Shown here in pieces: positions 17,125-42,221 of a stretch of 64,000 nt of DNA (the first letter of the stretch is position 1; the number at the start of each line of letters is the position of its first letter). The translations under genes were made by a program, and so were the position numbers. The DNA is taken from NCBI GenBank assembly GCA_965223705.1, contig OZ245015.1, positions 2,208,001 to 2,272,000 on the forward strand, given 5' to 3'. Under the pieces are notes generated by a model that was not told the origin of the DNA, searched no databases, and was given only the letters and a program-made list of their open reading frames with translations. This DNA is from Myxococcota bacterium. GTDB taxonomy: Bacteria > Myxococcota_A > UBA9160 > UBA6930.

Positions 17125-17649
17125 ATGACACAACCCATTCGTCCAAAATCCATCCGGAACCGCACCGTCGTCTACGCCGATCCCCTTCTGTTTCGCCCGG
17201 CCGACGGCGCCGAGAGTTTGCAGCGTTATGTCCGCGAACTCGACGGACAAGGCGCCGACCCGTTCGTGCTGTTCGATGAAGAACCCGAACTCGAGAGCCT
17301 GTTCAGCGAGCTACCGGCTGAAGAAGTTCCGCTCCTCCGCCGCGAGGAAAAGGAGCATGGGAGCAAGGTCGCAGCGTTCGCCGACGCCCTCCTGGCAGAC
17401 ACCCTGGAGCTGGCTGTCGACGTCGACCGAGTACGAACGCCTCGGGGGGCCCGCTCGATGCTCCGCCAAACGGAGCTTCGATCGATGTTGGCCGCGGGAA
17501 CCGAGCGCGATGCGATCTCGTCCTGTCTGATCGCCGCCGACCGGGCGTTGACCCTTGGCATCGAGGCGGTGCGCGTCGGACACCCTCGCGCGCTGCTCGA
17601 AGATCGCGCGACCCGTATCCACGGGGACAACGCGAAGCTTGCTGCGTAG
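17125..17649 (+). CDS. Degenerate amino-acid-kinase (ArgB-like) fold protein, paralog 1
   Basis: AAFADALLADTLELAVDVDRV..G, LIAADRALTLGIEAVRV..ATRI follows AAK C-lobe pattern; aligns with 41550..42221. Confidence 0.65.
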   Translation: MTQPIRPKSIRNRTVVYADPLLFRPADGAESLQRYVRELDGQGADPFVLFDEEPELESLFSELPAEEVPLLRREEKEHGSKVAAFADALLADTLELAVDVDRVRTPRGARSMLRQTELRSMLAAGTERDAISSCLIAADRALTLGIEAVRVGHPRALLEDRATRIHGDNAKLAA

Positions 17650-17708: not shown

Positions 17709-18728
17709 ATGGCGCGCCGCGAGACCGTCGAAGCGCGGTTCGCGACCCGTTGTCGGGTCGCCGCTGCACTGTTCGTAGCGCTCGCCTTCGGTCAAGTCGG
17801 ATGCGGCGGCCCTTCGACGTTGGGCACGATCGAACGGAAGGACCCGCGCCTCGACGCACTGCTGGCGCCGGACGCGCGGATCGAGATCCTGGCGGACGGG
17901 TATGACTGGGCGGAAGGCCCAGTCTGGGTGAAGCACGCCGGTTACTTGCTCTTCTCGGACGTCCCATCCAACCGGATCTGTCGGTGGAAACGGGGAGAAG
18001 GCGCGCGAACCTACCTGCGGCCGTCCGGCGGGTCGAATGGCCTCGCGATCGACACGGCCGGAAGACTCGTCCTCTGCCAACACGGCGACCGTCGACTTGC
18101 GCGGATGGAGGTGTCGCTCGAACGCCCCGCACCGCGGCACGTCACGCTCGCGGGAGAGTTCGAGGGCAAGCGCCTCAACAGCCCCAACGACCTGGTCTTC
18201 CACACGGATGGGGCCATCTATTTCACGGATCCACCCTACGGGCTGCCCAAGGGGATGGGCGACCCCGGAAAAGAGCTCGACTTCCAGGGGGTCTACCGAC
18301 TCGGAACGGACGGTGAGCTCACGCTTCTCACGAGAGAGATGACGCGGCCGAACGGGATCGGCTTGTCCCCGGACGAAAGGACGCTCTACGTGGCGAACTC
18401 GGATCCGATGCACGCCGCGTGGTATGCGTTCCCGGTCGAAGCGGACGGCACCCTCGGAGCCGGCCGGGTCTTTGCGGATTTCACGGCGCAGGTGGGAGGC
18501 GCGAAGGGCCTGCCGGACGGCCTCAAGGTCGACGAACAGGGCAACCTGTGGGCGACAGGGCCGGGAGGCGTGATCGTCTTCGCGCCCGACGGAACGCACC
18601 TAGGCACGCTGGCGACCGGCGAGGCCACCTCGAACTGCGCTTGGGGCGAGGACGGTTCGACGCTCTTTATTACCGCCGACCAGTATCTCGCTCGCATTCG
18701 CACACGCACCAAAGGCCTGCGCTTCTAG
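17709..18728 (+). CDS. SMP-30/gluconolactonase family lipoprotein
   Basis: WAEGPVW, NSPND, PNGIGLSPD, PDGLKVD; lipobox-like VGC. Confidence 0.92.
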   Translation: MARRETVEARFATRCRVAAALFVALAFGQVGCGGPSTLGTIERKDPRLDALLAPDARIEILADGYDWAEGPVWVKHAGYLLFSDVPSNRICRWKRGEGARTYLRPSGGSNGLAIDTAGRLVLCQHGDRRLARMEVSLERPAPRHVTLAGEFEGKRLNSPNDLVFHTDGAIYFTDPPYGLPKGMGDPGKELDFQGVYRLGTDGELTLLTREMTRPNGIGLSPDERTLYVANSDPMHAAWYAFPVEADGTLGAGRVFADFTAQVGGAKGLPDGLKVDEQGNLWATGPGGVIVFAPDGTHLGTLATGEATSNCAWGEDGSTLFITADQYLARIRTRTKGLRF

Positions 18729-39224: not shown

Positions 39225-39240
39225 TGGCATGCTGCCTGCA
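39225..39240 (+). promoter_or_regulatory. sigma54 (-24/-12) promoter
   Basis: TGGCATGCTGCCTGCA, followed by AGGAGG RBS and ATG 39266. Confidence 0.65.
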
Positions 39241-39265
39241 TCGTGTTCCGCAGGAGGCTCCTGCC

Positions 39266-39532
39266 ATGGCCACCGCTGCAACCGATCCGCCCCGTTCGAC
39301 AGACTCGTCTCTCGCTACTTTGTTGGAGATGCGCGAGCACCTGACCGTTTCCGAATGGGCGCAGCGACTCGTCGACTGGATGAAAATTCAGGAAGAATCG
39401 ATGCGACGACTGAAGCCTGAGGATCCGCGCCGCAAGCGGTTGCGCAGGCGTTGTCGGATCGCCCGGCGACTTCTCAACCGAACGCGGGTGGCTCGGCCTG
39501 CGGATGAGCTATCGAGAGAACGAGTCGCCTAG
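39266..39532 (+). CDS. Small basic hypothetical protein (88 aa)
   Basis: Strong RBS, sigma54 promoter, helical Arg-rich C-half. Confidence 0.65.
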   Translation: MATAATDPPRSTDSSLATLLEMREHLTVSEWAQRLVDWMKIQEESMRRLKPEDPRRKRLRRRCRIARRLLNRTRVARPADELSRERVA

Positions 39533-39546
39533 TTCTCGCGGGATGC

Positions 39547-40008
39547 TCAAGATCCCGCTGGCGAAATCACGATCGCCGGGTGTCGGCCGTCCTGATCTGA
39601 ACACAGGACATCGGTCGTGGGATCGGCGTGCGCGAAGGCTCGAGAGCTTCGCTCTCCCAGGGCGTCGACGACCCCTTGCACGTAGTCTTCCGACTCCCAT
39701 CTCGGATCGTTTCCGGACGGTTCGCAGTAGCCGAGTTCGATGTGACCCGGCTCAAAGTCGCGAATCAGTTCGGCCGCTGCGTCGATCAGCACCTCGCTCT
39801 CGGCGGTCAAGCGCTCACCGTTCGGCGCGAGCGTCAGCCCGCGCACGACGATGGGCGCGTTGTCCTCGTCTGCGCCCGCGAACTCGGTGCCCGCCGTAGC
39901 GGAGGTAGCCGTGAACAATCGGATCGCCGCGAGCAGCGCGATCAGTCCGAGCAACAGCAGGAGCCGCGTTTCTTCTCTTCCGGTCTTGTTTGCGAGCCTT
40001 TGATTCAT
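39547..40008 (-). CDS. Membrane-anchored protein with degenerate OmpA-C-like domain
   Basis: TM helix, then IVVRGLTLAPNGERLTAESEVLIDAAAELIR..IELGY; lacks the canonical GHTD and LSxxRA motifs. Confidence 0.5.
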   Translation of the reverse strand: MNQRLANKTGREETRLLLLLGLIALLAAIRLFTATSATAGTEFAGADEDNAPIVVRGLTLAPNGERLTAESEVLIDAAAELIRDFEPGHIELGYCEPSGNDPRWESEDYVQGVVDALGERSSRAFAHADPTTDVLCSDQDGRHPAIVISPAGS

Positions 40009-40020
40009 ACCGAACGGTGG

Positions 40021-40036
40021 TGCAAGTTCCGTTCCA
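40021..40036 (-). promoter_or_regulatory. sigma54 (-24/-12) promoter
   Basis: TGGAACGGAACTTGCA on minus strand, 12 nt before ATG 40008. Confidence 0.7.
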
Positions 40037-40075: not shown

Positions 40076-40132
40076 CGGACACCCCTGGCCTGTCTTGTGG
40101 GAGCACGCGCTAGAATCGGCCACCTATGTCCG
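40076..40132. promoter_or_regulatory. Paired enhancer-like boxes; second overlaps bEBP start codon
   Basis: CGGACA-CCCC-TGGCCT (40076) and CGGCCA-CCTA-TGTCCG (40117); TAGAAT -10 at 40111. Confidence 0.6.
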
Positions 40133-41553
40133 ATTCCGCGATGCGAGGCGCCCGGATTGTCGTGCGTGGGGACCATGGCTTGGCTCCCGCTCTCGAGGCC
40201 GCTGGTCTCGATGTGACACTGGCTCCCGAAGCGTCGCAGGGTGCCTTGGCCGAGGGCCCGCCACGCCTCGTGGTGTTTTCGGAGGACGTCCCCGACCTGG
40301 TCCGACAGGTCAGGGAGTCTCGCGCGCGCTGGCCGCTCGTCGATGTTCTCGTCCACGCCGCCGACGCGTCGGCGCGTGATGTCCGAGCCTTGCTGCAGGC
40401 CGGTGCCCGGGACGTGTTGCTCGAGACCGACACCGAGTCGGTCGCAACGGCGGTTCGTCGGGCGCTCGAGGCGCAACAAATCCTTCCCGCCGTCGAAGAG
40501 CTATCGAAGCGCCGGGTTCGTTCTTCGCGGTTCGAAGGCATGTTGAGCCGCAGCAACGCCATGTGGGACGTTTTCGAAACCTGTGCGCGGGTCGGCCCGA
40601 CGGATGCGAGCGTCTTGATCTGCGGCGAGACGGGTACGGGCAAGGAGCTTCTGGCGCGGGCCGTTCACCGACGGTCCGGAAGATCCGGGCGATTCGTCCC
40701 CCTCAACTGCAGCGCAATTCCGGACCATTTGGTCGAATCGGAACTCTTCGGACACGAAAAGGGAGCGTTCACCGGTGCCGTGAAGGAGAGTCCGGGAATC
40801 TTCCGGCGCGCGCAGGGTGGGACCGTTTTCCTCGACGAGATCGGGGATATGCCGCAACCGGCCCAACAATCGCTCCTGCGCGTCGTCGAGCAGCGCGTGG
40901 TGCGACCGGTCGGGTCAGCCGATGAGGCGCCCGTGGACGTTCGTATCGTCGCCGCCACGAACAAGCCCCTCGAGGAGGCCGTGGCTGCCGGGACGTTTCG
41001 CGAAGATCTCTTTTACCGGCTCGACGTCATCCGGCTTCAGATCCCGGCGCTGCGCGATCGTCCCGAGGATATCGTCTACCTGTTCGGGTTTTTTGCCAAG
41101 CGACTCGCCAAGCACTACGGCGTCGCACCACCGAAGATCGGTGACGCGTTTATCGGCGAGCTCACCGCGTACCCCTGGCCGGGCAATGTCCGGGAGCTCG
41201 AAAATCTTGCGGAGCGTCTAACGCTTCGCGGAGAGAGTCGAGCGCTTGCGGCGTCCGACTTCCACCGCTCCGTTCGTCCTGCCGGTGATGGCGTGGGCGC
41301 GGCCGAATCGTCTGCGTCCACCGATCGCGCGCCTCCGTGCGAGATCGACACGACAAAGACCCTCGAGCAGACCGTGATGCCTCAGCTCAACGAAATCGAG
41401 GAGCGCTATCTCGCCGCGCTTCTCACCGAGACGGGCGGGAGCGTTCGAGAGACGGCGTCCCGGGCGGGCGTGTCACCTCGAACGCTCCAACGCAAGATGG
41501 CAGCGCTCTCACTCGATAAGGCGGACTTCAAGTCGCCGGGAGCGGACGACTAA
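40126..41553 (+). CDS. sigma54-dependent enhancer-binding protein (NtrC-like) with degenerate receiver
   Basis: GETGTGKE, ESELFGHEKGAFTGA, FLDEIG, FREDLFYRL, WPGNVREL, C-terminal Fis-type HTH. Confidence 0.93.
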   Translation: MSDSAMRGARIVVRGDHGLAPALEAAGLDVTLAPEASQGALAEGPPRLVVFSEDVPDLVRQVRESRARWPLVDVLVHAADASARDVRALLQAGARDVLLETDTESVATAVRRALEAQQILPAVEELSKRRVRSSRFEGMLSRSNAMWDVFETCARVGPTDASVLICGETGTGKELLARAVHRRSGRSGRFVPLNCSAIPDHLVESELFGHEKGAFTGAVKESPGIFRRAQGGTVFLDEIGDMPQPAQQSLLRVVEQRVVRPVGSADEAPVDVRIVAATNKPLEEAVAAGTFREDLFYRLDVIRLQIPALRDRPEDIVYLFGFFAKRLAKHYGVAPPKIGDAFIGELTAYPWPGNVRELENLAERLTLRGESRALAASDFHRSVRPAGDGVGAAESSASTDRAPPCEIDTTKTLEQTVMPQLNEIEERYLAALLTETGGSVRETASRAGVSPRTLQRKMAALSLDKADFKSPGADD

Positions 41554-42221
41554 GCCGCTGTGGCGTAGGGGTGGTGGCGACTGCCTCGCAGTCTCCACCA
41601 AGCACTGGTGACCCGCTCGTAGCGTTCACTCAGACACGCTCCCACCGGCGTGCGGCGCAGGTTCCAGCTCGTGGCTGCGGGCCGGTCCGTGACCGTTGCT
41701 GCGTAGGAAATTTGCGGGTCCGGCACGAGTTCGGTCGCGTTGCCGCGCGTCAGGGTTTCCGGAGAGCCGAAGCGGACGCGGGCGACTCCCTTTCGAAAGG
41801 CGTCACAGCCCGCGGCGAGTTTCTCTCGGATCTTCTTGCGAACGCCCGGGCATTCCGACAGCGCTTCCGCCCGGCCGATCGAGAGCTCGTGCGCTGCGTT
41901 GCCGTTCTCGTCGTACACGACGGGCGCGTCGATCACGAAGTCGAGGGCATCGGCGTGGAGCCGTGAGGCGATCTCGGCGGAAAGCTCCTCCTCGGACTTC
42001 GACTTGGCACCCGCGAGTTCATTGGTCGGAAGACTCGTTTGGCTGGCCGCTTTTTCGATCTCTCGATGTCCGCGGTGCAGAAGCAAGGAGCGGTCTTCGT
42101 CGACGGAGTTCAGGTACTGGGCAAGCCGCTCCGGTCCGCTCGGATGTTGTAGGACCAGGGCTCCGGCGTGAATGACCCGCTCGACAGGATGGCGTTCCGA
42201 CTGAATTGGCACGTTTCGCAT
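41550..42221 (-). CDS. Degenerate amino-acid-kinase (ArgB-like) fold protein, paralog 2
   Basis: AEIASRLHADALDFVIDAPVVYDENG..ELS..KLAAGCDAFRKGVARVRF..ATEL; AAGGAGG RBS. Confidence 0.7.
   Translation of the reverse strand: MRNVPIQSERHPVERVIHAGALVLQHPSGPERLAQYLNSVDEDRSLLLHRGHREIEKAASQTSLPTNELAGAKSKSEEELSAEIASRLHADALDFVIDAPVVYDENGNAAHELSIGRAEALSECPGVRKKIREKLAAGCDAFRKGVARVRFGSPETLTRGNATELVPDPQISYAATVTDRPAATSWNLRRTPVGACLSERYERVTSAWWRLRGSRHHPYATAA

Follow-up and report, generated by a model that had tools for sequence, protein, structure and literature searches.

Within the 64,000-nt stretch of Myxococcota DNA analysed here (the window), two genes for miniature proteins related to acetylglutamate kinase (NAGK, ArgB), which we call P1 and P2, lie 24 kb apart, each behind a sigma54 box and candidate activator-site palindromes, and P2 lies beside the gene for a sigma54 activator (bEBP) (Table 1). 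The codon bias favours the annotated frame of P1 as judged from its sequence (0.124 vs −0.16 and −0.17, with 0.083 in the antisense frame), and no terminator-like site was found between P1 and the SMP-30/gluconolactonase gene downstream, so the two are possibly co-transcribed. Two Logan contigs match the P1 ORF with zero differences listed and may be the source of this DNA, the X5 match spans only part of P1, and no RNA datasets containing P1 were listed. In P2, the last ~53 codons (window 41550-41711, minus strand) show no coding bias. Separately, its tail ends in a PYAT motif that L037, L038, and P0013 also have in their long tails. Since five intact amino-acid-kinase (AAK) enzymes, read as LysC, ArgB, ProB, PyrH, and carbamate kinase, are encoded elsewhere in the genome, neither P1 nor P2 fills a metabolic gap.

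Table 1. Features of the P1 and P2 loci in window coordinates, with the arg operon loci in their own coordinates
Feature	Position	Strand	Remarks
Distal candidate activator-site palindrome, P1	17001..17014	.	GGACA-N4-TGTCC type; 96 nt before box
Proximal candidate activator-site palindrome, P1	17043..17056	.	54 nt before box
sigma54 -24/-12 box of P1	17097..17112	+	P1 ATG 28 nt after box start
P1, mini-NAGK pseudo-kinase, most eroded subclade	17125..17649	+	174 aa; from ORF list, profile, AF2 model, alignment
SMP-30/gluconolactonase gene (PF08450)	17709..18728	+	Starts 59 nt 3' of P1
153-aa ORF, third predicted target	39547..40008	-	Hydrophobic N-terminal segment; behind strongest palindrome-bearing sigma54 promoter
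Third sigma54 box of predicted regulon	40021..40036	-	Divergent from bEBP
Palindromes at third promoter	40077-40090, 40118-40131	.	Second overlaps bEBP start codon
sigma54 activator (bEBP)	40126..41553	+	Pseudo-receiver, intact GAFTGA AAA+ domain, Fis-type HTH; converges on P2
P2, mini-NAGK paralog	41550..42221 (start 42221)	-	223 aa from ATG behind strong Shine-Dalgarno; keeps D181 and K217
sigma54 box of P2	42254..42269	-	Shine-Dalgarno follows
Candidate activator-site palindrome, P2	42309..42322	.	53 nt before box; weak second one at 84 nt
arg operon loci	L101 3965-12170; L102 3454-11965; L103; L104 6134-11854; L042 1-5230		Variously reduced

Paralogy, fold and deletion of the miniature proteins

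The initial annotation had aligned P1 by eye with the ORF 24 kb away, and statistics bear this out. A Smith-Waterman comparison of P1 with the first 170 aa of P2 gave an end-to-end alignment with a score of 98 (z = 11.3) that none of 2000 shuffles reached, and in phmmer searches among 42,794 genome ORFs each protein was the other's only match below E 0.5 (3e-4 and 5e-4). P1 and P2 are true paralogs, with 41 identities over 167 positions, a relationship missed by two-sequence BLASTP (not significant, E 1.1).

The same annotation had read P1 as a pseudo-kinase of the amino-acid-kinase fold, a reading now supported by profile, model, and structure comparisons as well as by residue losses. Pfam searches yielded no match for P1 and a sub-threshold one for P2 (AA_kinase, E 0.057, 13.6 bits, below the gathering score of 24.9 bits), six of 11 family members reached AA_kinase at E <= 1 (best 3.8e-6), and a family profile matched two separate segments of the T. 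maritima NAGK (2bty 51-79 and 181-254; E 3.5e-10). In the ESM Atlas there was no usable lead for P1, and the sole lead, for the relative L037, was AA_kinase (0.90). An AF2 model built from 11 minis only, with no templates, reached pLDDT 87 and pTM 0.85 (a single-sequence model, at pLDDT 43, was discarded). When this model was compared with solved structures (VIA), the best 30 matches all belonged to the amino-acid-kinase family, with Z from 14.8 down to 9.4 and, for the top match, an rmsd of 2.5 across 157 residues, and the top Foldseek match was NAGK (E 1.5e-6). The modelling thus supports an alpha/beta/alpha AAK fold (PF00696 superfamily) for the minis.

Compared with NAGK (E. coli 1gs5, T. 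maritima 2bty), the minis retain the fold, the strand order, the N-terminal beta1-alphaA-beta2-alphaB, and the whole C-lobe, and differ by a single deletion of residues 87-179 (93 aa, a third of the enzyme) in the numbering of the genome's own ArgB, which bears out the earlier claim of a deleted central substrate-binding region. From the HGGGP proline to the D162 position there are 22-28 residues in 31/31 minis (25 in P1) vs 116-124 in 24 full-length enzymes. In NAGK, as the available part of PMC2851564 describes it, K8, D162, and K217 are catalytic, R66 and N158 bind NAG, and the deleted stretch holds the NAG lid, R66, N158, and dimer contacts, including the dimer helix that the minis lack. 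Outside the deletion, K8 is kept in none of the 31 minis and G11 in one, while D181 persists in 26 and K217 in 28; K217 is missing only from P1, P0003, and P0029, and in this clade G10 has also become D. P1 carries Y, P, G, and C at K8, G11, D162, and K217 (D162 with less certainty, as its column falls on the junction of the deletion), and the motif readings first made by eye proved exact (Y/D/P at K8/G10/G11 and F/D/E/E at H42-G45). The phosphate loops are acidic throughout the P1 clade, in P1 itself including the DEEP loop, and the C-lobe pocket of P1 keeps D181-V182, has Ile at M214, and has lost K217. At the other end of the range, the basal minis P0031-P0033 keep TDV and GMxPK, with Arg at K8. 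Read from the alignment, the family descends from NAGK by one deletion and a subsequent step-by-step loss of motifs, in which the nucleotide pocket went last and decayed furthest in P1. The nucleotide sensor proposed in the initial annotation is accordingly plausible for P2-type members, given their D181 and K217, and least likely for P1 itself, since its clade alone lacks K217 and also carries the G10 to D change.

Family, tree and selection

Our family alignment holds 31 minis (the fragments P0008, P0028, P0039, and P0151 were excluded) and is highly divergent, as only 4/465 pairs exceed 70% identity and the median is 34%. One of the fragments, P0151 (145 aa), has intact KLGG, HGGG, and GMVPK motifs and a different internal deletion, and is either an independent truncation or an assembly artefact. 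A three-sequence profile run against 224 other class genomes recovered five further full-span relatives in four genomes, plus about 70 weak matches that on inspection were nearly all C-lobes of ordinary ArgB, and larger profiles added further relatives. Among 1.84 billion representatives, about 25 single-stretch, near-full-span matches ranked before two-stretch matches to full-length kinases. P1's closest relative, NNL85628.1, is labelled ‘Myxococcales bacterium’, the only taxon label met in the family. Single sequences found little: P1 alone as a query matched 0/60 relatives, and word-indexed searches led from P1 to P0003 only and from P2 to nothing. In 400 other genomes of the phylum (8 candidates scored per genome) no mini was found at E <= 1e-11, and metagenome scans gave matches in 0/601 and 1/248 stretches.

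The minis are monophyletic (UFBoot 100) and fall with the other type of NAGK, apart from the genome's own ArgB; their sister among full-length NAGKs is placed with support of only 36-70. A C-terminal R-x-G is present in 30/31 minis and in 13 of the 14 members of one full-length NAGK group, and absent from canonical ArgBs; a count of R-x-G regardless of position carried no information and was set aside. Within the family, P1, P0003, and P0029 form a clade (UFBoot 100) at 36-59% identity, with open frames and common substitutions (YADP, EPxL, and the K217 loss). As for selection, the dN/dS comparison among homologs suggested earlier was informative for the two closest DNA pairs of the family (0.21 and 0.39), the remaining 26 pairs (0.44-1.11) being saturated; these values describe family pairs, and P1 itself, having no close DNA relative, is not among the measurable ones. 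Taken with the open frame and the three-member clade, the family dN/dS argues against decay and suggests that the family is maintained by selection and P1 is not a pseudogene. In the parent NAGK group there are also full-length members (P0034, P0037, P0042, and L042 4316-5230) that each bear a single loss (N158, D181, or K8), and judging by sequence these are possible earlier steps toward a pseudo-kinase.

Promoters, palindromes and the adjoining activator

The genome contains 29 sigma54 boxes vs 2.3 expected. Since our first palindrome count (2/53 sigma54 boxes) was post hoc, we used a palindrome matrix trained on 18 sites of other genomes only and scanned 348 sigma54-like boxes of this genome, of which those at 40036, 17097, and 42269 ranked first (null frequency <= 0.0007). 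The rank of P2 is less secure than that of P1, as the fourth-ranked box scores 17.3 vs 18.3 for P2. All three top-ranked promoters have a proximal palindrome of the GGACA-N4-TGTCC type at 53-54 nt, and the P1 and 40036 promoters share their whole geometry (palindromes at 54 and 95-96 nt from the box, and 28 nt from box to ATG). With so short a distance between box start and ATG, the mRNAs from these two promoters are predicted to be leaderless. The palindrome over the bEBP start codon suggests autoregulation. More broadly, all 8 minis with DNA context are preceded at 28-59 nt by a sigma54 box, whose -12 element is imperfect in L040 and L079.

Other features accompany these promoters. The 153-aa ORF behind the third promoter has no relatives in 5 genomes, Pfam, or PDB, and by eye, without support from those sources, resembles a degenerate OmpA-type C-terminal domain. 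Between it and a Na/Pi cotransporter, window 39225-39532 (plus strand) holds a sigma54-like box, a Shine-Dalgarno, and an 88-aa ORF with no Pfam match. Elsewhere (G000:C1, about 1.82-1.83, 3.34-3.35, 3.66-3.69, and 4.52-4.53 Mb), sigma54 boxes cluster before small proteins, which we take to be of general-stress types (USP, CsbD, PRC-barrel, BON, catalase), and we read these clusters as a sigma54-run general stress regulon.

The activator beside P2 has an N-domain that is receiver-like by weak profile matches (E 0.015), and in eight aligned activators this receiver is degenerate, with D in the phospho-Asp column in 2/8 and the acidic pocket and conserved Lys in 0/8. Activators of the same family adjoin P2, L037, L038, and L039, as well as the full-length ArgB paralog L042, though the five class-level activator loci served as the training set, so that their linkage is partly circular. 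In two genomes (L037 9136-9630; L038) a conserved ~165-aa ORF with no Pfam match sits between mini and activator. Searching 401 genomes of the phylum with the activator N-domain gave four new loci, three of which (L101-L103) face a sigma54 operon argC-argB-argD-argA-like GNAT-argJ, with palindrome clusters between promoter and activator (genes annotated by NCBIfam in L102 and read by eye in L101 and L103). In L101 and L102 the operon continues with an ATP-grasp gene and a ~660-aa gene. The fourth locus, L104, has the palindromes and an argA-argJ operon, lacks argC, argB, and argD, and has no argB within 18 kb, which indicates that the activator also occurs without an AAK neighbour. The loci form an erosion series, from the full operon (L101-L103) through argB with GNATs and ATP-grasp only (L042) to a mini alone, and the operon's GNAT, ATP-grasp, and 660-aa genes are absent from this genome; judged by gene content, the minis look like the last remnant of an argC-argB-argD-argA-argJ operon. 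The operon itself, a set of ornithine-synthesis genes, ends in a GNAT, an ATP-grasp ligase, and the ~660-aa protein, which has no NCBIfam match, and may make an ornithine-derived compound or polymer.

Three of the eight minis with DNA context (L040, L041, and L079) show no tie to this activator. Another bEBP precedes L040 and L079, neither of which has a good palindrome; L041 has no palindrome, and its genome yielded no match to the activator profile. A scan of the genome contigs for the activator recovered two loci already known and one further match, rejected as having a canonical receiver and no AAK neighbour; the weak class matches L089 and L090 are canonical response regulators too. The link between P1 and the bEBP, proposed from the window alone, is supported at the level of regulon and synteny. 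Modelled as a complex, P2 (8-170) and the receiver and AAA domains of the activator scored 0.00 in two runs without controls, which is evidence neither way.

A proposed regulatory role and its alternatives

Our main reading, to which we give a probability of roughly 0.4, is that P1 is a NAGK deletion derivative, predicted to be sigma54-transcribed under the 40126-41553 activator, and that it likely acts back on this activator as a protein partner. It starts from the documented fold, deletion, residue losses, family monophyly, promoter and palindrome sequences, and synteny. The GGACA-N4-TGTCC palindrome would be the activator's binding site, and the activator, having no phospho-acceptor, would need a non-phosphorylation input. 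The ArgB of the ancestral operon may have had a second, regulatory job, for which argB would have outlasted first its operon neighbours and then its own active site. P2-type minis might still read ADP/ATP in the retained C-lobe pocket, and P1 (K217 to C, G10 to D, acidic DEEP loop) would be a nucleotide-blind copy that binds the activator or P2 regardless of nucleotide and damps or resets the circuit like an antiactivator. A bolder formulation, in which a ~155-residue AAK core carved from ArgB is the missing sensor of the pseudo-receiver activator, with P2 reading ADP/ATP, nucleotide-blind P1 opposing it, and every stage from arg operon to dead regulator extant, is one we regard as rather doubtful.

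The promoter link marks the mini as an output and does not show it as an input, and a mini that is purely an output of the regulon, i.e., a stress-induced, USP-like protein that binds adenine nucleotide or inhibits another target (e.g., a GNAT N-acetylglutamate synthase or another glutamate-pathway enzyme) rather than an activator partner, is a serious contender, if still a tentative one. L040 is flanked by a different bEBP upstream and a Dps-like ferritin gene downstream, other mini loci border NAGGN-type, RimK/GCS2, ClC, and wax-ester genes, with neighbours that are often stress- or osmolyte-like, and many of the genome's sigma54 boxes precede what we take to be proteins of general-stress type (USP, CsbD, BON, catalase). 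USPs are also the next small folds after the AAK family in the structure comparison (Z 8.5), and L104 has the activator without argB. However, the USP match is no better than common alpha/beta arrangements give, no two loci have the same downstream genes whereas the mini-activator pair recurs, and this genome lacks the ancestral GNAT partners.

The other alternatives are considerably less probable. It is improbable that a mini acts as a PII decoy or a dominant-negative subunit of the housekeeping ArgB, as the initial annotation had also suggested. The genome does have two PII genes and a canonical hexamer-type ArgB, and the minis keep the C-lobe helices, P1 with an Arg in the alphaG column that we take to correspond to cyanobacterial R233. 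In the available text of a preprint (bioRxiv 10.64898/2026.08.10.743959), R233 is a PII contact and PII binds the hexameric ring with its T-loop inserted between domains. The hexamer N-helix motif is present in 0/31 minis vs 10/10 canonical ArgBs, the arginine-site motif in 0/31, and the alphaG Arg in only 6/31, and the dimer contacts lie in the deleted part (PMC2851564, in the portion available). The absence of N-helix, arginine-site motif, and dimer face, together with a family origin in an NAGK group other than that of the genome's ArgB, disfavours the decoy. A similarly low probability attaches to P1 alone being a decaying duplicate, with only P2-type minis functional. P1 has the most losses of family-conserved residues (H42, G44, K217), no Shine-Dalgarno, a GC3 of 0.73 vs 0.80-0.90 in relatives (but P2 has 0.75), and it matched none of its relatives as a query; against decay stand the substitutions shared by its open-framed, divergent clade, the confident fold, and a palindrome pair that is the best preserved in the genome beside the activator's own. 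Least probable of all is a still-active enzyme of new chemistry, an ATPase or a kinase for a very small or protein substrate. The ATP motifs of the basal minis, with an Arg in place of K8, would allow it, and the molybdenum storage protein MoSto, as the available part of PMC6448029 describes it, is AAK-fold and hydrolyses ATP for another purpose; P1, however, lacks both lysines, has Pro in place of G11, and carries acidic residues in each of its phosphate loops.

Known systems offer partial precedents for the feedback partner we favour. The AAK domain of ArgA (Z 13.2 against the mini model) is a non-catalytic, NAGK-derived regulatory domain, but is GNAT-fused, full length, and arginine-binding, whereas the minis stand alone and have no arginine motif. 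DhaK/DhaL with the enhancer-binding protein DhaR, and the dead DhaK paralog DhaQ, are kinase subunits and a dead paralog serving as ligand-sensing partners of their own operon's activator, analogous to the role proposed for the minis though unrelated in fold; PspA-PspF and NifL-NifA are further partner-controlled activators. MosA/MosB of MoSto (Z 11.9) are, like P1/P2, two AAK-fold paralogs that do not serve as an amino-acid kinase, but they are full size, cage-forming, and ATP-hydrolysing, whereas the minis have no molybdenum context (PMC6448029, in part). The available passages of PMC8528422 describe FleQ as an activator whose receiver Asp is absent and which is held in check by the ATPase FleN, a partner arrangement analogous to the one suggested here. 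FleN, however, is a MinD-type P-loop ATPase, and the candidate partner here would be an AAK pseudo-kinase. In the literature searched, we found no activator-partner role described for any AAK protein; no description of truncated or dead NAGK paralogs or of this arg operon was found in titles and the starts of abstracts, subscription papers and supplements aside, and a sigma54 regulon survey says nothing of argB or argC in its available passages (PMC12316311).

A mini is an AAK-fold member and not a NAGK, and non-catalytic uses of AAK folds and partner-controlled bEBPs are already known. If our main reading is true, the AAK fold would join the sources of stand-alone bacterial pseudo-enzyme regulators, and the family would provide a rare enzyme-to-regulator series with living intermediates (an intact operon, a reduced operon, a deleted protein with intact ATP motifs, and a deleted protein with eroded motifs). 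The mini would also be a natural minimal AAK scaffold, below the shortest solved AAK chains among the fold matches (about 210 residues). With the sigma54 activator family and its predicted operator and regulon defined, the control of an activator whose receiver lacks the Asp can be put to a direct test using three small genes.
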